64,000 nt of DNA from Escherichia phage 4MG, in sequence record NC_022968.1; one strand, written 5' to 3'. The first letter of the stretch is position 1, and each line of letters begins with the position of its first letter. A program made the translations under genes and the position numbers. Below are positions 937 to 42,196 of this stretch, in pieces. Under the pieces are notes generated by a model, which was not told the origin of the DNA, did not search any database, and saw only the letters and a program-made list of their open reading frames with translations.

Positions 937-1548
937 TTAGTTTTTGCCAGTGTTGACAACAACGCCTTGGCGGTTTGCATCAGCTTTCGCGATTTCCAGA
1001 CGGGTTTCGCGTTCTGCTTTCAGATCTTCACGGGCAGCTTCAAGCTGTTCGGTCAGCATTGCGATACGATCTTTGTCTGCCTTGGTATTGGCATTCAGTT
1101 CAGCAATTGCAACCTTGTGAGATGCTTCCAGATTCGCCTTAACAGCGTTCAGTTCAGCATATACTTTCTGTTTTGCATCTGCAACAGCGGTGTTGATTGC
1201 ATCTTCGTTGCTGTCCTTAGCAACAGCCAGTTCGTTACGCAGACCATCAACGACACCCGGTTCGATAGCGACGAGGCCACGAGCCTTCAGCAGTGCGTTC
1301 AGAACGCCGTCTTCATTTTCCAGAACCTTGATCTTCAGCTTAGACTTTTCTTCAGCGAATTTCTCATCAAACTGAGCTTCAATCTGACCAAGCTCTTGCT
1401 GTTTAAACTGAATTTCCTGACTGATGCGCTCAGAACCATCTGCCAGAGATTGCAGGTCAGCGACGACCTTACTCAGACCAGAGGCAGCGGTTGCAACAGC
1501 TTTGGTAGCACGTTCAGTTACAGAAATTACAGTTTTAGAATCAGACAT
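937..1548 (-). CDS. hypothetical coiled-coil protein (203 aa)
   Basis: Track ORF; AAGGAGA SD upstream; composition similar to neighbour 214-861. Confidence 0.5.
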   Translation of the reverse strand: MSDSKTVISVTERATKAVATAASGLSKVVADLQSLADGSERISQEIQFKQQELGQIEAQFDEKFAEEKSKLKIKVLENEDGVLNALLKARGLVAIEPGVVDGLRNELAVAKDSNEDAINTAVADAKQKVYAELNAVKANLEASHKVAIAELNANTKADKDRIAMLTEQLEAAREDLKAERETRLEIAKADANRQGVVVNTGKN

Positions 1549-1588: not shown

Positions 1589-1726
1589 TTACACGTTTTG
1601 TTTGTCAAGCGAATCTTTAATTATTTCTTCGGTTGTTGGATTGTTTTCAAACCACGACCAATAATACCAGGCAATAATCAAAGAACAAATCACCGACATA
1701 ACAACAAAAATTACACCACCGCTCAT
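1589..1726 (-). CDS. small hydrophobic peptide (45 aa), putative membrane protein
   Basis: Not in track (<60 aa); ATG overlaps stop of 1723-1911 (ATGA coupling); hydrophobic core VIFVVMSVICSLIIAWYYW. Confidence 0.35.
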   Translation of the reverse strand: MSGGVIFVVMSVICSLIIAWYYWSWFENNPTTEEIIKDSLDKQNV

Positions 1727-1911
1727 CGTACAACGTCCTTGATTGAATCACAGACTTCGCCAACAGCATCGGCAGTTGGAGATACGATCATCTCATCAGC
1801 AGCATTGATTGCTTCACCTGCAAGCTCCACAAATGGGGTAGCTACAGCGGCAGTCACTTCAACTGCGGTTCCAACAACATCACCAGCCATGCGTAACAGA
1901 GATCCGAACAT
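1723..1911 (-). CDS. hypothetical small protein (62 aa)
   Basis: Track ORF; AAGGAGA SD about 7 nt upstream of ATG. Confidence 0.4.
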   Translation of the reverse strand: MFGSLLRMAGDVVGTAVEVTAAVATPFVELAGEAINAADEMIVSPTADAVGEVCDSIKDVVR

Positions 1912-1927
1912 TTTGTTCTCCTTTTAA

Positions 1928-2011
1928 TGGTGGACGGAGGTAAGGATTCGAACCTTACGTGATGCGCCCCTAAGCTGGGGGTCCAGGGATTCCTCACCTG
2001 TAATTAAGCAT
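1928..2011 (-). other. tRNA-like element (pseudo-tRNA or unusual tRNA), isotype unresolved
   Basis: Minus-strand T-arm TAAGG-TTCGAAT-CCTTA and 3' terminal ACCA directly downstream of tRNA-Lys; no 5' acceptor strand complementary to the 3' strand found by hand. Confidence 0.3.
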
Positions 2012-2031
2012 TACTCCCAAAGTCCATTGTT

Positions 2032-2107
2032 TGGTGGGGCATGAAGGATTCGAACCTTCGACCTTCGGCTTAAGAGGCCGCTACTCTAACCGCTGAGTTA
2101 ATACCCC
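2032..2107 (-). tRNA. tRNA-Lys (anticodon CUU)
   Basis: Hand-folded 76-nt cloverleaf: acceptor GGGGUAU/AUGCCCC, D-stem ACUC/GAGU, anticodon loop CUCUUAA, T-arm GAAGG-UUCGAAU-CCUUC, encoded CCA. Confidence 0.8.
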
Positions 2108-2220
2108 GAAATTTGGCCAGTGTTTTTCAAGACGTTGCACGGAATCGTCACGGTTGCCGCAGCCCTTTATTTTAAGACGCATCGCCGCAGCCAGCTTCGT
2201 CTATCCCCATGCCGGAGGAA

Positions 2221-2550
2221 TTACTTCTTCTTACCTTTCGGCGCTACGGCTTCAACAACCTTAGCGTCTTTAGCTTTACCAGCGCGTTCACGCTTGGTCT
2301 TGCCAGTGCGAACACGGTGTGAGGCAGAAATCACCTGACCGCCTTCAACGCGGGAAACAGATTCCCATACGAATACAACGTTGCCGTCTTCATCACGACG
2401 CTTCTTGCGAATGGAAACGGTTTTTGTAACACCGCCCAGGCGAACATCGTGTGGTGCAGAGTGAGTCTGCGTTGACTTCGACTCAAACTGGAAAGGCTGT
2501 TTGATTGCGTCGATTGCAGAAACTTTCTTAGTTGCGTTTTTCTTAGCCAT
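2221..2550 (-). CDS. hypothetical basic protein (109 aa)
   Basis: Track ORF; AGGAGA SD upstream; Lys/Arg-rich termini, no motif recognised. Confidence 0.5.
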   Translation of the reverse strand: MAKKNATKKVSAIDAIKQPFQFESKSTQTHSAPHDVRLGGVTKTVSIRKKRRDEDGNVVFVWESVSRVEGGQVISASHRVRTGKTKRERAGKAKDAKVVEAVAPKGKKK

Positions 2551-2619
2551 GTTGTATTTCTCCTCTATTTGCTAATGCCTTGTTGACGTTGGTAATACTA
2601 AACTTTCGTACTTCCTTTG

Positions 2620-2787
2620 TCAATCGTTTTTTAAATCTTTTTTCGGTTCTTTGTGAAGGCCGCGTGAAATGTCGTAACGGTCATACACAGAGTTGCTGTT
2701 GCCTACAGATGTTACCTTTCTGGAATCCCAGTTGAAGAACATTCTGTTTGGTTTGCTCATTCCGAAAAACTCATAAATCTTGTTCAT
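2620..2787 (-). CDS. hypothetical small protein (55 aa)
   Basis: Not in track; GGAGAG SD then ATG immediately downstream of tRNA-Met on the same strand; low-complexity-free sequence. Confidence 0.3.
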   Translation of the reverse strand: MNKIYEFFGMSKPNRMFFNWDSRKVTSVGNSNSVYDRYDISRGLHKEPKKDLKND

Positions 2788-2801
2788 GGTCTCTCCTCGT
2801 T

Positions 2802-2878
2802 TGGTAGTTCTGGCAGGGATTGAACCTGCGACCTCTTCCTTATGAGGGAAGCGCTCTAACCAACTAAGCTACAGAACC
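2802..2878 (-). tRNA. tRNA-Met (anticodon CAU; elongator Met or lysidine-type Ile2 cannot be distinguished)
   Basis: Hand-folded 77-nt cloverleaf: acceptor GGUUCUG/CAGAACU (G1-U72 wobble), D-stem GCUU/GAGC, anticodon stem CUUCC/GGAAG with loop CUCAUAA, T-arm GCAGG-UUCAAUC-CCUGC, encoded CCA. Confidence 0.8.
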
Positions 2879-4144: not shown

Positions 4145-5827
4145 TTACAGTTGAGCGGCTGCTCGTTCACGAATCGTTGTCAGGTCTTCATCGACAATCA
4201 GTTTGCCGTTGTAGAACACACGACGCAGTTCGTTATCGTCAGACTGTACATCTTCAAGCTGACAATTGTCAATCAGTTCTAGCTGACCAAACATATTGCG
4301 AACAACCTTCAGGAAACCTTTTGCAGACTTCTTACCGAGGTCAGTCTTAGGTTCTTTGACAACCATGATCTGCTGACCATCAATAACCGCACCAGTTGCC
4401 TTCACAGCCATACCCAGTGAATCGCGGGTTGTGTACTGGGTAGTAAAGGAACCAACACCGTACACGATATTGCTGGATGCAAAGCCTTTATCTTTCAGAC
4501 GTTCAAAGATGTCTTTTGCACGAGCAACAGTGATAGAGTCACCGTAGATCAGGCCAACATGACTATCCAGAACTTTGTAACCCTTGGAGTTAACTTCACC
4601 ACCAAAGATTTCCCACAGACACTGGATTGCACCTTTGACTTCATGGTCTTGCAGATCGGAAGGCTCAAGATCAAGGTAATCCGTATCTTCATCGAATTCG
4701 ATGTTGTAATACTTACCTTTGACTGATACAACTTCACCTTTCTCGCTTTCCCATGCTGCGTCTTTGGCTTCAGACAGCGTTTCGAAATCACCAATATAAC
4801 GATACCCCGCAATGATATGTTCCGGAATGCCTGAATCAGGACGGAACACAACACGACCGTCACGAGCCATGATTTCTTCTTTCAGAATCAGTGCTGCACG
4901 GGTAATAATCGCCCAGAAGTCATAGCTGTCTGCTACGTAGGAAACAAAACCTTTCGGGAAAATTTCCGTGATGTAGCGTTTCAGGAATTCAACTTCAGCC
5001 AGGAAACGCAGTTCATCCAGGGACAAATCAGGATTTTCAGTTTTCAGGCGACCGACGATAAAGCCAATGTTAGTTGTTGCAACACTGTGTTCTGATGCAG
5101 GAATAGAACCAGCAACGAACTTACCTTTCATGTTGTAATAACGGTTCGCATACAGAATCGCAGGAATGGTATCTGTACCCATTGAGTTGATCAGTTGACC
5201 AAACTCACTCTGTGCCGCGTCGTGAGTACCAGATTCACCGCGATAAGCGAAGCAGTGGTTCTGGAACGGAACATGCAGGTTGTTATCACAAGTTTCGGCA
5301 GCGTATGCTTCAGACAGTTTGCGATACTGCCAGAAGGTAGTTGCAGTTGTGATGGTTTTCCATGTCTCTGCGGAGATCACGCTTTCCAGGAAGTTCGGCA
5401 ACCAGTAAAAATCAGGGTGCGTGTTCTGAATGGTGAACAGCGGAACCTGTACCGGGGACAGAGTGCCTTCAGGAATCGAACGGATTTCCAGTGGCAGGTA
5501 ACCAAGGTCATGCAGCTTTTCAAAGCCCCAGGTTTCAACCATGTCCGGGCCGATGCTCAGTTCACAAATTTCTTTGTACTGTGCGATAGCCGCTTTCTTT
5601 TTCATTTTGAAAAAGTTTTCGTTGAACAGGTCGATCAGGAACCATTTGATGAAACCTTGCAAGCCAGCCATCATCACACGCTGATCGTTATCAGCGAAGT
5701 GAATGAAGTGCTTTGCATTGCGTGGTGTCATGTTGTCCTGAACAATTTCAGAACGTCGGTCATACATGGAGATGTGTGAAGGTTTGTAAAAGTCAGCGAA
5801 TACGAGTGGGCTTTCTTTATGCAGCAT
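4145..5827 (-). CDS. nicotinamide phosphoribosyltransferase (NAMPT) family protein; candidate nicotinamide ADP-ribose transferase of an NAD+ reconstitution pathway
   Basis: 560-aa track ORF with AAGGAGA SD; NAMPT motif set FADFYKPSH, PLEIRSIPEGT, FTIQNTHPDFYWLPNF, AYRGESG, ASEHSVATT, VADSYDFW, FRPDSGIP. Confidence 0.88.
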   Translation of the reverse strand: MLHKESPLVFADFYKPSHISMYDRRSEIVQDNMTPRNAKHFIHFADNDQRVMMAGLQGFIKWFLIDLFNENFFKMKKKAAIAQYKEICELSIGPDMVETWGFEKLHDLGYLPLEIRSIPEGTLSPVQVPLFTIQNTHPDFYWLPNFLESVISAETWKTITTATTFWQYRKLSEAYAAETCDNNLHVPFQNHCFAYRGESGTHDAAQSEFGQLINSMGTDTIPAILYANRYYNMKGKFVAGSIPASEHSVATTNIGFIVGRLKTENPDLSLDELRFLAEVEFLKRYITEIFPKGFVSYVADSYDFWAIITRAALILKEEIMARDGRVVFRPDSGIPEHIIAGYRYIGDFETLSEAKDAAWESEKGEVVSVKGKYYNIEFDEDTDYLDLEPSDLQDHEVKGAIQCLWEIFGGEVNSKGYKVLDSHVGLIYGDSITVARAKDIFERLKDKGFASSNIVYGVGSFTTQYTTRDSLGMAVKATGAVIDGQQIMVVKEPKTDLGKKSAKGFLKVVRNMFGQLELIDNCQLEDVQSDDNELRRVFYNGKLIVDEDLTTIRERAAAQL

Positions 5828-5880: not shown

Positions 5881-6414
5881 TTAGATGTCAAGTGAAAAAT
5901 CTAAAGATTTAGATTCTTCTGTTACAACCGTTGTTTCTTTAACCAGACGACAGCCTTTCACCTTGATTTCTTTGGCTGGTGACCACTTAGTCGCACGGAT
6001 ATAGAATGTGTTTGCACGAATAACCATGAACCGGGCTACATCTTCAGGTGGTTCCTCGTTAATAAAAATCGCAACACTTTCGTATGCAGGCCACTTCATA
6101 GGGTTTTCATCGGTAACATCGGAATGTATACCATTACCGTTGTTAGTGCGACCCGGTGTAGGCCAGATAGTACAAGGTCGATAGCAGGCGTGGTCATCAG
6201 GAACCTGAATAACGTGATTTTCTAACCACGAGCAAATTTTTTCCAGGTCAAAATCATAATGGTCTTCTTTCAGGTCTTCAATATCTGTACGATATTCAGC
6301 CCCAACACCACACTCACCGATTTGCCCGGTAATATGAGCGCACATGTCACGCTCAAAGTTTCCTGCGTATGAGTCAGTATCGACAACAAAAATAAAACGA
6401 GTTGATTCAGTCAT
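5881..6414 (-). CDS. hypothetical protein (177 aa) embedded between the NAMPT-like and Prs-like genes
   Basis: Track ORF; stop/start abuts 6414-7214; no motif recognised (no Nudix box, no P-loop). Confidence 0.5.
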   Translation of the reverse strand: MTESTRFIFVVDTDSYAGNFERDMCAHITGQIGECGVGAEYRTDIEDLKEDHYDFDLEKICSWLENHVIQVPDDHACYRPCTIWPTPGRTNNGNGIHSDVTDENPMKWPAYESVAIFINEEPPEDVARFMVIRANTFYIRATKWSPAKEIKVKGCRLVKETTVVTEESKSLDFSLDI

Positions 6415-7214
6415 TAAAAATTCTCCGTCCAGTCATGGTATGCGTAGATTTCATCAACCCCGCCATCGAGGATGATTTGTTTCCCGAATGAGAAAATGCC
6501 GTGCGTAACGTAAAGGATAACACGTTTTGCACCATTCTCTTTCAGGGCTTTAGCCAGGGCGATGAAGGTACGACCACCATCACAGATATCATCGACGACA
6601 ACGCATTCGCGTCCTTCAACATCACCAAAGATTGCTGTCCCCGTAATTTCGTTTGTTTTCAGGTCACGAACCTTACCAGCTTCAACCAGAGGGAGTCGCA
6701 TACGGTCGGCAACCTTCTGTGCCTTCTTGCGAGCGCCTGCGTCTGGTGCAACAATGGTCACATCTTTCCCGGCAAGTTGATCATGGAATTCTGCAACAAG
6801 AATCTCTTGTCCACGAATCTGAACATTGTCCAGCAGTGCAGCAGAAACATCACTGTGTGGGTCATCAACAATCACTTTGTCGAAGCCAAGCGAGTTGACG
6901 AGGTTTGCAAAAACCTTGATAGATAGTGACTGTCCAGGTTGCATCACGCGATCCTGACGGGCATACGGGATGTATGGCAGGTGCAGGGTAAACTCAGCAT
7001 GGTTATGCAGCCCTTCAAGACGGGAACATGCATCCACCAACATAGCTAATGCCATGACATCGGTGGAGTTTTTGATTTTTGCAGTGATATCGACGAAACC
7101 AATACCGCCTTTTGGGGCATGTTTCAGATCAATCTCAACCTGTTCCTCACCACCCTTGAAGGTGAAGTGGTTAACAGGCACTTCCAGTTTGTTCAAGCGT
7201 AATTCAATACTCAT
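6414..7214 (-). CDS. ribose-phosphate pyrophosphokinase (Prs) family protein; candidate ADP-ribose pyrophosphokinase
   Basis: 266-aa track ORF, AGGAGA SD; Prs motifs PYIPYARQDR and VVDDICDGGRTF, GAKRV; shorter than cellular Prs. Confidence 0.88.
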   Translation of the reverse strand: MSIELRLNKLEVPVNHFTFKGGEEQVEIDLKHAPKGGIGFVDITAKIKNSTDVMALAMLVDACSRLEGLHNHAEFTLHLPYIPYARQDRVMQPGQSLSIKVFANLVNSLGFDKVIVDDPHSDVSAALLDNVQIRGQEILVAEFHDQLAGKDVTIVAPDAGARKKAQKVADRMRLPLVEAGKVRDLKTNEITGTAIFGDVEGRECVVVDDICDGGRTFIALAKALKENGAKRVILYVTHGIFSFGKQIILDGGVDEIYAYHDWTENF

Positions 7215-12098: not shown

Positions 12099-12875
12099 TT
12101 GAGGCGTTTAATTGTTATTAGTGGTGCAGGCTTCTCTGCTGAAAGCGGTGTTCGTACATTCCGTACTGATACAGACTCCGGAAAGGCTTTGTGGGATGAG
12201 TACGACCTTGAAGAGGTCTGTAATATCCATGCTTTCCGTGGTAATTTCTATCACAAAACGCACATGTTTTATAACAAGCGTCGTGTAGAACTGCAAACTG
12301 TGCATCCGAATGCTGCACATATGCGTGTTGCTGAGTGGTATAAAAACTACCCAAAACAGGTTGTTAATCTGACGACAAACGTAGATGACCTGCTGGAACG
12401 TGCTGGTGTTCCTAAGGAAGATACTCTGTATATCCACGGATATCTGAAAGAACTTCGGTATAAACTTCACGAAGATTCTGAAGAGCAGTTAGTTGACATT
12501 GGTTACAATGAAGTAGATCCTGATGAATTTCACTGGTGCAAACCAAATGTGGTCTTCTTTGGTGAGGCTGCTCCAGCATATAACGACCTATACTCAACCC
12601 TAGATAGCCTGACATCTGAAGACATGGTGATTGTTGTTGGATGCTCAAACACAGTTATCAACTTCAACTGGGAGCTTTTCCCAGCATCAAGGATGGGTAC
12701 TAAGATTGTTGTGGTTAACCCTAATGTTCGCTACGATGAACAGTTGATGTACGAAGACGCTGGTGTTGTTGTATACCGAACTGGTGCTGTAGATGCGTTC
12801 AGCAACCCTGGTCTCATCAAAATGGTTGAGGATCACCTTGAAGGTAAAACCTCATTGCAGAAGAAGGAGAAATAA
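12099..12875 (+). CDS. Sir2-family (sirtuin-like) NAD+-dependent protein
   Basis: 258 aa, TTG start after AAGGGG SD; GAGFSAESGVRTFR NAD-binding signature, YIHGYL, VVGCSNTV, VVVNPN; no Cys4 zinc module. Confidence 0.7.
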   Translation: MRRLIVISGAGFSAESGVRTFRTDTDSGKALWDEYDLEEVCNIHAFRGNFYHKTHMFYNKRRVELQTVHPNAAHMRVAEWYKNYPKQVVNLTTNVDDLLERAGVPKEDTLYIHGYLKELRYKLHEDSEEQLVDIGYNEVDPDEFHWCKPNVVFFGEAAPAYNDLYSTLDSLTSEDMVIVVGCSNTVINFNWELFPASRMGTKIVVVNPNVRYDEQLMYEDAGVVVYRTGAVDAFSNPGLIKMVEDHLEGKTSLQKKEK

Positions 12876-37314: not shown

Positions 37315-38568
37315 ATGAAAGTATATCTGGTAGGTGGCGCAGTACGTGACGGTTTGCTTGGTCGTGAAGTTCATGACCGTGACTACGTGGTTGTGGGTGC
37401 AACGCACGAAGAAATGATCAATAAAGGTTTCACCCAGGTTGGCGCTGCTTTTCCAGTATACCTGCATCCTGAAACCAACGAAGAGTATGCTTTGGCCCGT
37501 ACCGAGCGCAAGACGGGCAACGGTCATACAGACTTCGAAACATTCTTCAGCCCGGACGTGACTTTGGTTGAGGATTTGTCTCGTAGAGACCTGACGATCA
37601 ACGCTATGGCTAAAGATTTGGAAACAGGAGAGATCATCGACCCGTTTGGTGGTCAGTATGATATCGAAAAGAAAATTCTGCGTCATACAACGCTGGCATT
37701 CCTTGACGATCCTCTCCGCATCCTGCGTGTGTACCGATTCAAAGCACAACTGGGCAAAGACTGGGAAATCCATGCCGACACTAAAGCTCTGTGCTTTAAT
37801 AACCGTTATGGGCTGTCCCACATCAGCGGTGAGCGTAAGTGGAAAGAGATGGAGAAAGCCCTTGGTTCTGACAACTTCCGGGCATATGCTGAAGCAATGG
37901 CAGAGCTTGGTGAGTTGCCAGAACTGGATGCCCTGCGTGGAGTAGCACAACCACCAGAACACCACCCGGAAGGTGATGCTTTCGTTCATACACTGCTGTG
38001 TTTGGATGTGGCTGACCTTTACGAGGCTAACCCGTATACCAAATTTGCAGTGCTGTGCCATGACTTCGGTAAGGCGATCACTTTCCGTAAATACGGCAAT
38101 CTGATCGGGCATGAAGAGGCAGGTCTGGAACCAGTACGTACATTGTGTGAGCGTATCCGTGTGCCTAACGACTTCCGTGATGTTGCACTGTACGTAACAG
38201 AGCACCACACCCGTGTTCACTGTATCGCCCCTCGTGGCGGCAATAAGGGTGCAAAGCCACGGTCACTGATGAAACTGTTTGAGGCAGCAGGTAATGTGGC
38301 GAGCGCCAAAACAGCGATGAAGGTTGGTTCTTTGGCAGATGCGTGTTTCTGCGATGCAAAAGGTCGTGGTCCAACAAAAATTGCAGAGCCGTATCCGCAG
38401 GGTTATGTTCTGATGGATGCTTTCCGTTGCATGAAGGCTGTTGACACTAAGGTGATCTCTGCTGAGTGCCTTGCAAAAGGTAAGAGCGGTATCGAGATTG
38501 GTGAAGCTATTCGTGTTGCACGTATTGATGCTATCCGTAGCATCACCCAGCGTGAAATTAAGTGGTAG
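37315..38568 (+). CDS. tRNA nucleotidyltransferase (CCA-adding enzyme) with HD domain
   Basis: 417 aa; class II head MKVYLVGGAVRDGLLGREVHDRDYVVVG, RRDLTINAMA, and HD-type CHDFGK motif. Confidence 0.85.
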   Translation: MKVYLVGGAVRDGLLGREVHDRDYVVVGATHEEMINKGFTQVGAAFPVYLHPETNEEYALARTERKTGNGHTDFETFFSPDVTLVEDLSRRDLTINAMAKDLETGEIIDPFGGQYDIEKKILRHTTLAFLDDPLRILRVYRFKAQLGKDWEIHADTKALCFNNRYGLSHISGERKWKEMEKALGSDNFRAYAEAMAELGELPELDALRGVAQPPEHHPEGDAFVHTLLCLDVADLYEANPYTKFAVLCHDFGKAITFRKYGNLIGHEEAGLEPVRTLCERIRVPNDFRDVALYVTEHHTRVHCIAPRGGNKGAKPRSLMKLFEAAGNVASAKTAMKVGSLADACFCDAKGRGPTKIAEPYPQGYVLMDAFRCMKAVDTKVISAECLAKGKSGIEIGEAIRVARIDAIRSITQREIKW

Positions 38569-40776: not shown

Positions 40777-41114
40777 AAGACGTTCGTGGTGAAACCCTGA
40801 ATGTTGGTGATGAGGTTTATATCTACTGGGGGTATAACCAATTGCGCCCAGCCGTGGTAAAGCAGATCACTAAAAACAAGGCCAAAGTGTTTTGTGACGG
40901 GTCACTCTCCAAATGGAAGTCAGGTGAGTGCATGATCAAGGCAGAAGAACCAACAGGCTACTACCCTGACGAGGTGATCATGCTTCTTGAAGAGATTCGT
41001 CGTATTCGGGATGAGGCTCCGATGAATAAAGAGGGTCTTCCAACAAAACAACTGTGCCAGGGGCTTCTGAATTTTTGGGATATGAAGCGCCCAATGAAAC
41101 TGGTTACCTCTTAA
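40773..41114 (+). CDS. hypothetical protein (113 aa)
   Basis: Track ORF. Confidence 0.45.
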   Translation: MKDVRGETLNVGDEVYIYWGYNQLRPAVVKQITKNKAKVFCDGSLSKWKSGECMIKAEEPTGYYPDEVIMLLEEIRRIRDEAPMNKEGLPTKQLCQGLLNFWDMKRPMKLVTS

Positions 41115-41122
41115 GGAGAGAT

Positions 41123-42196
41123 ATGAAAACTTTTGATATGATGCGATGCTACTCAGGTAGCCTCGCGTATGGGACTAATCTCCCAACATCGGATGTTGAT
41201 ATCCGTGGTCTGTTCTGTGCGGAACCTAAGTTCATCCGTACTCCATTCTTCAATATCAAAGAGCAGACGCTCGCTGATGAAGAGGATGGTAAGATCTACG
41301 AACTGACAAACTTCATGAAGTTGTTTGTGGAGATGAACCCCAACATCATCGAACTGATGTTTGTTGATGAAAAAGATATCATTTCCAGTTCAGACGCTTA
41401 CGCATACCTGCGTACAATGGCACCTGAGCTTATGTCAAGTAAGGTTGCATTTAGCTTCTCTGGTTATGCTATGGCACAGCTTAAGCGTATCCGTGGTCAT
41501 GATAAGTGGATCACCAATCCGCAACCGGAGGAAAAGCCAACGCAAAAGGACTTCTTCCGTTTAGTCCACAACTACAGTGAGCACCCTTTCCTTGCTGGTG
41601 TAATTAAGCACGAACGCTTCATGGAGGCCATGACAAATCTGAACGATATGTGCGTCCTCGTTCCTTATGGCAACGACATCTATGGTGTGATGGAGAACTT
41701 CAGTAGCTCAGGTATGTTCAACGCAGATGGTTCTATTCGTCATGTTGACTACCAGCAACTGTCTGATACAGACAAGCGCCGGAAACCTGTGTTCATTGTA
41801 AAGTATCTGGCAGAAGAGCACAAACAGGCAAAGGAGAAGCACCGTAACTACTGGGCCTGGAAGCAGAACCGTAACGAAGTGCGTCATCAGCTTGAAGTGA
41901 ACTTTGGGTACGACACCAAACACGCCATGCATCTTGTACGTCTGATGCGCATGGCTGAAGAGATCCTGACTGATGGAAAGGTTCTGGTGAAGCGTCCTGA
42001 CGCTCAAGAACTCTTAGATATCCGTGGTGGCAAGTGGACTCTTGACGAGCTTCTTAAATGGGCTGATGAAAAAGATCATTACATTCGCGAAGTTCTGTAC
42101 AAAAAGACAGACCTGCCGAAGTACACCGATCTTGAGTTAGCTTCTCGTGTTCTCATGACAGCGCAGGATATCTGCTGGGCGAGTATGGATGTTTGA
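41123..42196 (+). CDS. polymerase-beta superfamily nucleotidyltransferase of unknown specificity
   Basis: About 357 aa; GSLAYGTNLPTSDVDIRGL fits the G[SG]-x(9-13)-D-h-[DE] nucleotidyltransferase signature; helical C-terminal domain. Confidence 0.6.
   Translation: MKTFDMMRCYSGSLAYGTNLPTSDVDIRGLFCAEPKFIRTPFFNIKEQTLADEEDGKIYELTNFMKLFVEMNPNIIELMFVDEKDIISSSDAYAYLRTMAPELMSSKVAFSFSGYAMAQLKRIRGHDKWITNPQPEEKPTQKDFFRLVHNYSEHPFLAGVIKHERFMEAMTNLNDMCVLVPYGNDIYGVMENFSSSGMFNADGSIRHVDYQQLSDTDKRRKPVFIVKYLAEEHKQAKEKHRNYWAWKQNRNEVRHQLEVNFGYDTKHAMHLVRLMRMAEEILTDGKVLVKRPDAQELLDIRGGKWTLDELLKWADEKDHYIREVLYKKTDLPKYTDLELASRVLMTAQDICWASMDV

Follow-up and report, generated by a model that had tools for sequence, protein, structure and literature searches.

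A putative non-decoding tRNA mimic with a conserved fold behind the tRNA-Lys gene of a Seunavirus-like phage

Six nucleotides behind a tRNA-Lys(CUU) gene, on the minus strand of the 64,000-nt stretch of Escherichia phage 4MG analysed here (NC_022968.1; hereafter the window), lies a 98-nt RNA gene, element A, that appears to be a selected tRNA look-alike, neither a third tRNA nor junk, because its fold is preserved across related phages. The source phage is a Seunavirus-like member of the Vequintavirinae. The reading of element A as a tRNA-derived, non-decoding tRNA mimic, rather than a third tRNA, is given a probability of about one half, and the favoured, though unproven, role is that of a decoy or cofactor in the contest between phage and host over tRNAs.

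A sequence-only reading of the window had recorded a third tRNA-like element at 1928-2011 with a perfect T arm, an ACCA 3′ end and an acceptor stem that could not be paired. The existence of the element stands, as do the T-arm motif (1940-1958, minus strand) and the ACCA ending at 1928, the sequence after the T arm being CUCCGUCC-ACCA, but the 5′ limit does not. By stopping at 2011, that reading removed the 5′ strand GGAC-UUUG-GGAG (2025-2014) and consequently missed the acceptor stem, which forms, as 4+4 bp flanking a 4-nt bulge, once the 14 nt up to 2025 are added. The component parts are listed in Table 1; position i of the RNA corresponds to window coordinate 2026-i.

Table 1. Element A, its component parts and other features of the window discussed in the text
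Feature	Coordinates	Strand	Basis or remarks
Element A, 98-nt tRNA-like RNA gene	2025-1928	-	Extracted and aligned with 3 other variants; covariance model 122.7 bits
Acceptor 5′ strand, outer half GGAC	2022-2025	-	Pairs with GUCC 1932-1935; 100% of cells paired
UUUG bulge, 4 nt, acceptor 5′ strand	2018-2021	-	Same in 4/4 variants
Acceptor 5′ strand, inner half GGAG	2014-2017	-	Pairs with CUCC 1936-1939
U-A dinucleotide, tRNA U8-N9 position	2012-2013	-	Invariant; model alignment to ordinary tRNAs puts U-A on U8-A9
Helix P2, 5′ strand AUGC	2008-2011	-	Pairs with GCAU 1962-1965; encloses H2 and H3; found by RNAalifold
Joiner UUAAUUA, single-stranded	2001-2007	-	Invariant
Hairpin H2, D-arm-like, CAGG / loop UGAGGAAUC / CCUG	1984-2000	-	Loop of 9 nt, contains GG
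Hairpin H3, anticodon-arm-like, 5-bp stem ACCCC/GGGGC, 7-nt loop CAGCUUA	1966-1982	-	Loop invariant
Helix P2, 3′ strand GCAU	1962-1965	-	Pairs with AUGC 2008-2011
T arm, 6-bp stem GUAAGG/CCUUAC, canonical loop UUCGAAU	1940-1958	-	A:U to G:C in Hena1
Acceptor 3′ strand CUCC-GUCC	1932-1939	-	Pairs with both 5′ halves
Discriminator A and genome-encoded CCA	1928-1931	-	Invariant in 4 variants
Spacer AACAAU, 6 nt, tRNA-Lys CCA to G1 of element A	2026-2031	-	AACAAU or AACAAC in every element-bearing phage
tRNA-Lys(CUU), canonical	2032-2107	-	ARAGORN; Rfam tRNA model 69.5 bits
tRNA, anticodon CAU, elongator type	2802-2878	-	ARAGORN; Rfam tRNA model 72.6 bits
109-aa basic protein	2221-2550	-	phrog_6662, E=4.9e-53; upstream of element A, same predicted transcription unit
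62-aa ORF	1723-1911	-	phrog_9123, E=6.6e-32
Predicted sigma-70-like promoter TTGACA-17-TAGTAT	2595-2623	-	Consensus match only
Cca with HD domain (CCA-adding enzyme)	37315-38568		Pfam scan of window ORFs
RlaP RNA-repair nucleotidyltransferase	41054-42196		Pfam scan of window ORFs

The fold is supported by comparison among phages. Searches by blastn with the window and Hena1 versions returned 9 phage records and four sequence variants, representing three lineages and two phage genera and free of indels among themselves; the error-ridden and unverified record of Salmonella phage 19 was set aside. At 86% identity between the genera, 16 of the 17 variable columns belong to eight base pairs, seven of which stay paired in each of the variants, and none of the loops varies. 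The fold comprises 27 pairs and is 98% paired, with eight pairs changed on both sides against 2.8±1.2 in shuffles (0/500 reach 8) and none in any of the slid controls. Both halves of the bulged acceptor, paired in 100% of cells, carry compensatory changes: the outer pair A3:U92 becomes G:C in GAP31 and Hena1, and the inner pair G10:C89 becomes A:U in the GAP31 group. Within H2, an A:U pair is replaced by G:C in GAP31 and by G.U in Hena1, while H3 has a C:G to U:A exchange in Hena1 and a basal pair (44:60) that is paired in two of the four variants. Compensatory support for P2 comes from Hena1 alone, in the form of two double changes (A:U to G:C and C:G to U:A). On folding energy P2 is equivalent to a local hairpin, UAAU/AUUA, that might have served as the D arm (-26.7 and -26.1 kcal/mol, respectively), but the local hairpin was rejected for having no compensatory change against the two of P2. 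The stability of the single-sequence fold does not exceed that of shuffles (z = -0.95).

Element A shares many features with canonical tRNAs, including the G1-G2 start, the U-A after the acceptor, a T loop conforming to UUCRANY (UUCGAAU) and a discriminator followed by CCA (A-CCA), the last two in all four variants. A hairpin of D-arm geometry with GG in its loop and another of 5 bp with a 7-nt loop are likewise present, and model R1, when run on ordinary tRNAs, aligns H2 to the D arm and H3 to the anticodon arm; its place in a tRNA operon, with another tRNA ending 6 nt before it, is equally tRNA-like. The architecture nevertheless departs from the canonical one, with the acceptor/T-arm half retained and the body rebuilt. 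Instead of an uninterrupted 7-bp acceptor on a 5-bp T stem, a bulged 8-bp acceptor (4+4 bp) sits on a 6-bp T stem, and 11 extra nt separate the U-A from the D-like hairpin, of which 4 pair with the stretch preceding the T arm. Neither hairpin offers a canonical anticodon loop (7 nt, U33, purine 37): H3 has A33 and U37, and the H2 loop UGAGGAAUC is 9 nt long. Having no U33, no purine 37 and no standard cloverleaf, element A should not decode.

Standard software likewise does not fold it as a tRNA. ARAGORN at default settings finds neither a tRNA, with introns allowed or not, nor a tmRNA; the Rfam tRNA model RF00005 gives no match at its gathering score nor at E<=10, and no other Rfam family matches either. 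The public annotations of six relatives have no tRNA at the site, including that of FENT2, though its tRNA-Lys entry carries isotype and score. Lowering the ARAGORN threshold to 80% yields a proposed tRNA-Ser(GGA), a type II fold that was rejected: its acceptor is paired in only 64% of cells, against 100% for the bulged acceptor, lacks compensatory changes and includes two columns that never pair. The sequence-only suggestion of a type II tRNA awaiting computational folding fails on this count, and its alternative of a degenerate tRNA, in the sense of decay, is contradicted by the placement of variable columns in base pairs. Its third option, a tRNA-derived regulatory RNA, fits best, in the form of a tRNA-derived structured RNA. 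Coding was also considered, but a 47-aa ORF (1854-1997) and a FENT2 CDS annotated over element A were judged spurious, because the substitutions track base pairing and not codons.

Among known tRNA-like RNAs, the tRNA-like domain of tmRNA has a similar topology, running from the acceptor 5′ strand through a short linker to a helix that encloses an insert (the equivalent of P2), and then to the T arm, acceptor 3′ strand and ACCA. The insert of element A, however, measures only 42 nt and bears neither pseudoknots nor a tag reading frame, and its third acceptor pair is A:U or G:C rather than G.U. A tmRNA or mini-tmRNA assignment was accordingly rejected, as ARAGORN -m finds none even at the 80% threshold and the Rfam tmRNA families give only a permuted-tmRNA match whose 10.7 bits fall below the gathering score of 47. 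The bacterial Y RNA YrlA is, like element A, a non-coding tRNA mimic in which an acceptor-like stem is combined with a T arm and a D arm, and some YrlA RNAs reside in phages or are substrates of RNase P and the CCA enzyme (PMC4201824). Unlike element A, YrlA is circularly permuted, has both termini in a Ro60-binding stem, carries the motif GNCGAAN0-1G and is encoded next to a Ro60 gene. Element A does not have these traits of sequence and order: its 98 nt do not contain the motif, and its D-like hairpin comes ahead of the T arm, so that the order is not permuted. A Pfam scan of 22 window ORFs revealed neither a Ro60/TROVE nor an RNA ligase domain, and no TROVE protein is annotated in the first 62 kb (1-62 kb) of SalP219, a near-identical relative.

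A precedent in setting is offered by the species 1 (rnaC) and species 2 (rnaD) RNAs of phage T4, which are also small RNAs encoded among phage tRNAs. Species 1 RNA is stable, has a T arm near its 3′ end and is co-transcribed with the T4 tRNAs (PMC2330249); both T4 RNAs share this stability and co-transcription, which element A is predicted to have as well. The T arm of rnaC, CCGGG-UUCGAAU-CCCGG, lies beside an imperfect terminal stem and resembles that of element A, yet homology is not detectable: R1 scores rnaC at 19.4 bits, a value driven by the T arm and within the range of ordinary tRNAs. Moreover, rnaC is 139 nt long with a different interior and no encoded CCA, while element A has P2 enclosing two hairpins.

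As to its parent, global alignment to the 25 tRNAs of a relative did not discriminate. Local alignment of the 5′ two-thirds of element A gave the phage tRNA-Ser(GCU) as the best match, with 25 of 29 aligned positions and z=3.4 (p ~0.003 before correction for 25 comparisons). Descent from a type II tRNA-Ser(GCU)-like gene is thereby weakly suggested. Other odd yet recognizable tRNAs occur in the same phage lineage, namely an 87-nt tRNA-Lys(UUU) with a D-loop hairpin and a tRNA-Asn with a long variable arm.

The distribution of element A is patchy. Scans of IMG/VR for homologues returned only Hena1 itself along with ordinary type II tRNAs or chance matches, and metagenome scans returned nothing real. 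No host copy exists in 5,426 E. coli genomes, and neither the 27-nt 3′ half nor the loop pattern has a match in 185,579 species genomes; an attP-like copy of a host tRNA 3′ half and a host-derived RNA were rejected on this basis. Element A is missing from the close relatives PVP-SE1, LNA4 and Mydovirus, and hence is dispensable for growth on their hosts. Where present, it always comes after tRNA-Lys(CUU). Its downstream neighbour varies, being an ORF in the window and SalP219 and another structured RNA in GAP31, EC152, FENT2 and Hena1, and element A is therefore not tied to a downstream gene. The same hypervariable site holds an element B in relatives, composed in order of a long terminal stem, a T arm, a hairpin and a D arm, and it is to this element, not to element A, that the permuted, YrlA-like layout belongs. 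A candidate YrlA motif in element B was discarded, since GACGAAAG in Mydovirus corresponds to GAAGAAAG in Hena1 and the match is not conserved.

The small ORFs that the sequence-only reading saw interleaved with the tRNAs are real phage protein families (phrog_6662, 6110, 9123 and 14349). Three TTGACA-17-TAGTAT matches lie on the minus strand, at 2899-2927, 2595-2623 and 1580-1608, the middle one of which would drive a unit consisting of the 109-aa ORF, tRNA-Lys, element A, the 62-aa ORF and a 45-aa ORF. Element A would be made within this early polycistronic transcript. RNase P would then cut 5′ of G2025, after the spacer behind tRNA-Lys, and the 3′ end would be trimmed to the encoded CCA, leaving a stable RNA of ~98 nt. 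The 14-bp acceptor/T stack with its bulge is a non-standard substrate for RNase P or the CCA enzyme, however, and counts against tRNA-like maturation. Within the mature RNA, P2 stacked on H3 may replace the limb of the tRNA L shape formed by the D and anticodon stems, and the H2 loop might use its GG to contact the T loop. Rather than decoding, element A would bind proteins that recognize tRNA shape or tRNA ends. The same genome has a toolkit for conflict over tRNAs comprising ~25 tRNAs, Cca-HD and RlaP, the last of which restores damaged tRNA ends (PMC12776372), and phage tRNAs are known to counter tRNA-cleaving defences (PMC10264068; PMC11555353; PMC12409363). An extended version of this proposal, speculative and rather unlikely as a whole, has a type II tRNA-Ser-like gene exapted, its decoding lost and its body rebuilt into a new tRNA-shaped fold, to act in trans as a counter-defence RNA, either as a decoy that sequesters a host nuclease or toxin whose target is the tRNA body or the CCA end, or as a dedicated cofactor or substrate of Cca-HD or RlaP; together with element B, it would mark a hotspot of interchangeable tRNA-mimic cassettes in the Vequintavirinae.

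Other explanations of the same facts deserve consideration. Element A might be a chargeable tRNA of aberrant shape, whether a type II tRNA-Ser with GGA in H2 or GCU in H3 or a Lys-like CUU species, whose odd body escapes host tRNA nucleases. Such a tRNA would accommodate the sub-threshold ARAGORN call, the GCU and CUU contained in the H3 loop, the local similarity to tRNA-Ser(GCU) and the company of other odd tRNAs in the lineage, and SerRS does not read the anticodon. It is nonetheless very unlikely, given the poorly paired Ser(GGA) acceptor (the bulged one has two compensatory changes to its none), the lack of U33 in either candidate loop, the failure to match the Rfam tRNA model, and a discriminator A where tRNA-Ser has G; SalP219, moreover, already possesses Ser(GGA), Ser(GCU), Ser(UGA), Lys(CUU) and Lys(UUU) tRNAs. 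That element A is a functionless, decaying tRNA pseudogene in a plastic intergenic site is hardly credible. Its patchy presence among close relatives, its being missed by standard tRNA finders and its unexceptional single-sequence folding energy would all suit a pseudogene, but decay would give unpaired changes and indels, and what is seen between genera is substitution confined almost wholly to base pairs, invariant loops and no indel in four variants.

A further possibility is a cis-acting processing or stability module, akin to tRNA punctuation, that serves only to recruit RNase P and 3′ processing to separate tRNA-Lys from the downstream message or to protect the 5′ end of that message. 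Support for this view comes from the location of element A, which has tRNA-Lys on its upstream side and, on its downstream side, the 62-aa ORF, whose Shine-Dalgarno sequence begins 6 nt past the ACCA, and from the sharing of one predicted transcription unit by all three; tRNA-like processing signals are familiar elsewhere, as in mitochondrial punctuation and mascRNA. It is judged improbable because PVP-SE1 keeps the same tRNA-Lys and ORF arrangement without element A, because GAP31, EC152, FENT2 and Hena1 follow it with another structured RNA in place of the 62-aa ORF, and because processing alone would not require three invariant loops, the UUAAUUA joiner and the UUUG bulge. A Y RNA-like scaffold or cofactor, tethering or regulating an RNA-repair or decay enzyme (phage Cca-HD or RlaP, or host PNPase or Ro60), is also quite unlikely. 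The window does encode Cca-HD and RlaP, the element B of relatives has its permuted layout at the same site, and the YrlA RNAs of bacteria are tRNA mimics that RNase P can cleave and that can acquire CCA (PMC4201824). Against these points, element A has neither the GNCGAAN0-1G motif nor a permuted strand order, the scanned ORFs contain no Ro60/TROVE or ligase domain, and Cca and RlaP are expected also in relatives that lack element A, so that they would provide no co-occurrence signal.

Phage tRNA clusters are now seen as weapons with which phages oppose host defences that cleave or modify tRNAs, and non-decoding, tRNA-shaped RNAs have been known in such clusters since the 1970s, from the T4 species 1 and 2 RNAs. 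To these, element A would add a small, covariation-supported fold that comes and goes between otherwise near-identical phages, which thus constitute natural plus/minus pairs for testing the function of the RNA. It also exposes an annotation gap, being missed by standard tRNA finders and Rfam and covered by a CDS in one public genome (FENT2); should it prove only a processing relic, its value would lie in better annotation.

The two tRNA genes of the window are ordinary. ARAGORN calls exactly two in the 64 kb, bearing out the two clean tRNAs, Lys(CUU) and CAU, already recognized. For the latter, initiator, elongator and lysidine-dependent Ile identities had been entertained. It has a G1.U72 pair and no GGG/CCC in the anticodon stem, features on which an initiator is excluded from sequence, leaving Met or Ile2; identities of 81% to E. 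coli tRNA-Ile(GAU), 78% to metT and 65% to ileX do not discriminate between these two. The apparently minimal tRNA set is an artefact of the window edge, as relatives carry ~25 tRNAs. SalP219 has 25 annotated (24 by ARAGORN). Its main cluster starts 390 nt downstream of the orthologue of window ORF 214-861; by this spacing, the main cluster of the source phage would begin ~180 nt beyond window position 1. The T-arm-like pattern GGTTCRANNCC occurs four times in the window against 0.95 expected, three of these within 900 nt on the minus strand.

A scan for T-loop hairpins placed a third such hairpin at 1941-1957(-), on the same strand as both tRNAs, and the motif GGTTCRANNCC occurs four times in the window against 0.95 expected. 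The perfect T arm and ACCA end described in the sequence-only reading are present on the minus strand (GUAAGG-UUCGAAU-CCUUAC-CUCCGUCC-ACCA, ending at 1928), and the 3' end of its element 1928-2011 holds, but its 5' limit does not. No acceptor stem had been seen because that interval ended at 2011, while the RNA begins at 2025 with GGAC-UUUG-GGAG, in which GGAC pairs with GUCC and GGAG with CUCC, leaving over a 4-nt bulge. This gene, element A, comprises 98 nt (RNA position i is window position 2026-i) and starts 6 nt (AACAAU) past the CCA of tRNA-Lys.

Phages of the Vequintavirinae (genera Seunavirus, Henunavirus and Mydovirus) match the region at 74-95% identity, and blastn finds element A in nine phage records, namely Salmonella phages 41, SalP219 and 19, Cronobacter phage GAP31 (two), Enterobacter phages EC152 and FENT2, and Erwinia phage Hena1 (two). 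No additional homologue was found in IMG/VR, metagenomes or 185,579 species genomes (two scans each), nor any match in E. coli genomes. With the unverified, indel-ridden record of phage 19 set aside, these records yield four usable variants, which align without gaps. Of 17 variable columns, 16 make up eight base pairs, and the named structure of 27 pairs is paired in 98% of alignment cells. Both-sided changes occur at all eight pairs, compared to 2.8+/-1.2 in shuffles (0/500 reach eight) and zero in all slid controls, with at least one compensatory change in each helix. The loops and joiners UUUG, UA, UUAAUUA, UGAGGAA(U/A)C, CAGCUUA and UUCGAAU are invariant bar one loop position. Folded on its own, the sequence shows no exceptional energy (z = -0.95); the case for the predicted structure is comparative. 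One helix, P2 (AUGC/GCAU), has a rival in a local hairpin at RNA 13-16/22-25, which is equal in energy and shows no compensatory changes; P2 carries two double changes and is favoured rather than proven, because both come from the single lineage of Hena1. The anticodon-arm-like hairpin H3 runs straight into the 3' strand of P2, and the two could therefore stack as a 9-bp limb.

The possibility that software would fold this element into a standard tRNA was not borne out. ARAGORN does not call it by default, with introns allowed or in tmRNA mode, and the Rfam tRNA clan has no match on 1850-2130 even at E<=10, where the sole Rfam neighbour is the permuted tmRNA (10.7 bits against a gathering score of 47). 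None of six public relatives has an annotated tRNA at the site. With the ARAGORN threshold dropped to 80% for sub-threshold calls, a tRNA-Ser(GGA) with two acceptor mismatches is proposed, but its acceptor is paired in only 64% of alignment cells and shows no compensatory change, and this fold was rejected. A covariance model built from the four-variant alignment and run on ordinary tRNAs equates the D arm with the hairpin H2 and the anticodon arm with H3. On this reading element A is a tRNA altered in three respects: its acceptor is bulged, 11 extra nt stand past U8-A9, and four of these pair with the segment that separates H3 from the T arm. Decoding is unlikely because the anticodon-like loop carries A33 and U37. 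The 5' two-thirds, from the acceptor end through the anticodon stem, resemble the phage's own tRNA-Ser(GCU), agreeing with it at 25/29 positions of the alignment (z=3.4, with p about 0.003 before correction for the 25 comparisons). A type II tRNA is a plausible ancestor, though not an established one.

The best-supported reading is that element A is a selected, non-decoding tRNA mimic that would be matured by tRNA-processing enzymes. Its closest known counterpart, alike in kind and not in sequence, is T4 species 1 RNA (PMC2330249). This stable RNA, encoded among the tRNAs of T4, has a T arm close to the 3' end, and no function is yet known for it. A putative role in conflict over tRNAs, as decoy or repair cofactor, is favoured on the basis of genomic context and the published action of phage tRNAs against tRNA-cleaving defences (PMC10264068, PMC11555353, PMC12409363); among the results of this analysis, none connects element A with such a defence or a repair system. 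Two reading frames annotated or predicted across it, a hypothetical-protein CDS in FENT2 (L007:344-472(-), XQW42413.1) and an overlapping 47-aa ORF (window 1854-1997(-)), are almost certainly spurious, since substitutions track base pairing.

The site following tRNA-Lys is hypervariable among relatives. It is empty in PVP-SE1, holds element A in the window, phage 41 and SalP219, holds element A with a second structured RNA (element B) in GAP31, EC152, FENT2 and Hena1, and holds element B without element A in Mydovirus phages and LNA4. The partner of element A is thus tRNA-Lys and not the downstream gene, which counts against a purely cis role. Element B, alone or directly after element A, is conserved, structured and about 105 nt long. 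It opens with a 13-bp terminal stem whose pairs covary from genus to genus; next come a T arm (ACGGG-UUCGACU-CCCGU) and a variable hairpin, and the last part, GAUAGCUUA...GG...AAGU, resembles U8-A9 and a D arm. The layout is thus tRNA-like but circularly permuted, like that of the YrlA Y RNAs. The YrlA motif GNCGAA is unconserved in element B, and Rfam has no match to it.

Features of the window, of element A (RNA numbering) and of element B (L-numbers are relatives' sequence records, with record-local coordinates)
Feature	Location	Strand	Basis
tRNA-Lys(CUU)	2032-2107	-	ARAGORN; Rfam tRNA model 69.5 bits
tRNA(CAU)	2802-2878	-	ARAGORN; Rfam tRNA model 72.6 bits
Promoter-like TTGACA-17-TAGTAT	2927-2899	-	hexamer match
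Promoter-like TTGACA-17-TAGTAT	2623-2595	-	hexamer match
Promoter-like TTGACA-17-TAGTAT	1608-1580	-	hexamer match
CCA-adding enzyme with HD domain	37315-38568	+	PF01743, PF12627, PF01966
RlaP RNA-repair nucleotidyltransferase	41054-42196	+	PF10127
Element A acceptor helices	RNA 1-4/91-94 and 9-12/87-90		
Element A P2	RNA 15-18/61-64		proposed by RNAalifold
Element A H2	RNA 26-29/39-42		
Element A H3	RNA 44-48/56-60		
Element A T stem	RNA 68-73/81-86		
Element B, Mydovirus	L002:913-1040; also L003, L033, L035	- (L002)	
Element B, other phages	GAP31 L006:~260-400; Hena1 L008; LNA4 L100	- (L006)	

Genes of the first 6 kb of the window lie on the minus strand. The three promoter-like sites are identical in their hexamers, each immediately upstream of a tRNA or small gene, which suggests that they are a set of early promoters, strong and used by the host polymerase; the transcript from the predicted promoter at 2623-2595(-) would cover a 109-aa ORF, tRNA-Lys, element A and two small ORFs. 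A 113-nt untranslated gap (2108-2220(-)) separates the 109-aa ORF from tRNA-Lys and holds the motif CUUGAAAAACAC, which every relative keeps immediately 5' of this tRNA. Elsewhere, the CCA-adding enzyme and RlaP form a tRNA-end repair kit of the phage; where the 3' end of an RNA is damaged, RlaP adds nucleotides to it, and tRNAs repaired in this way regain function (PMC12776372). Three further genes appear NAD-related: 4145-5827(-) and 6414-7214(-), whose SalP219 orthologues are annotated as nicotinamide phosphoribosyltransferase and ribose-phosphate pyrophosphokinase, and 12099-12875(+), a SIR2-family protein (PF02146).

Across the 64 kb ARAGORN calls two tRNAs and no more, the Lys(CUU) and CAU tRNAs that had been seen to fold cleanly, and the Rfam tRNA model adds none at its gathering score. 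The small ORFs noticed between the RNA genes do match phage protein families, of unknown function. The notion of a minimal tRNA set fails, as the cluster in relatives extends past two protein genes (window 937-1548 and 214-861). SalP219 has 25 annotated tRNAs across 8 kb, its tRNA-Thr beginning 390 nt beyond the orthologue of ORF 214-861, and by synteny the main cluster would start about 180 nt outside window position 1.

Bacterial initiator tRNAs carry a C1xA72 mismatch and three G:C pairs. The CAU tRNA, for which an initiator identity had been entertained, has G1.U72 and U29:A41 instead and is for this reason assigned, from its sequence, to the elongator type. It may be either Met or lysidine-dependent Ile: identity to E. 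coli tRNAs is 81% for Ile(GAU), 78% for elongator Met and 65% for Ile(CAU), and the orthologue is annotated Ile in SalP219, whose cluster includes a further CAU tRNA at its far end, and Met in other relatives.

Variant tRNAs were observed among the relatives. The tRNA-Lys(CUU) of LNA4 (L100:424-499(-), an unverified record) has the anticodon loop CACUUAA, with A33, in place of CUCUUAA; either a sequencing error or a genuine loop variant may account for this. SalP219 carries an 87-nt tRNA-Lys(UUU) (L091:16815-16901), annotated in the record and missed by ARAGORN, with a small hairpin (GAC-GUAU-GUC) inserted in the D loop. It looks like an escape variant from the PARIS nuclease AriB, since tRNA-Lys(UUU) is a target of AriB, which reads the D loop (PMC12409363). 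Asn(GUU) is also among AriB targets, and the 83-nt tRNA-Asn(GUU) of SalP219 (L091:16962-17044) bears a variable-region hairpin (GAGU-GAAA-ACUC) unusual for Asn.
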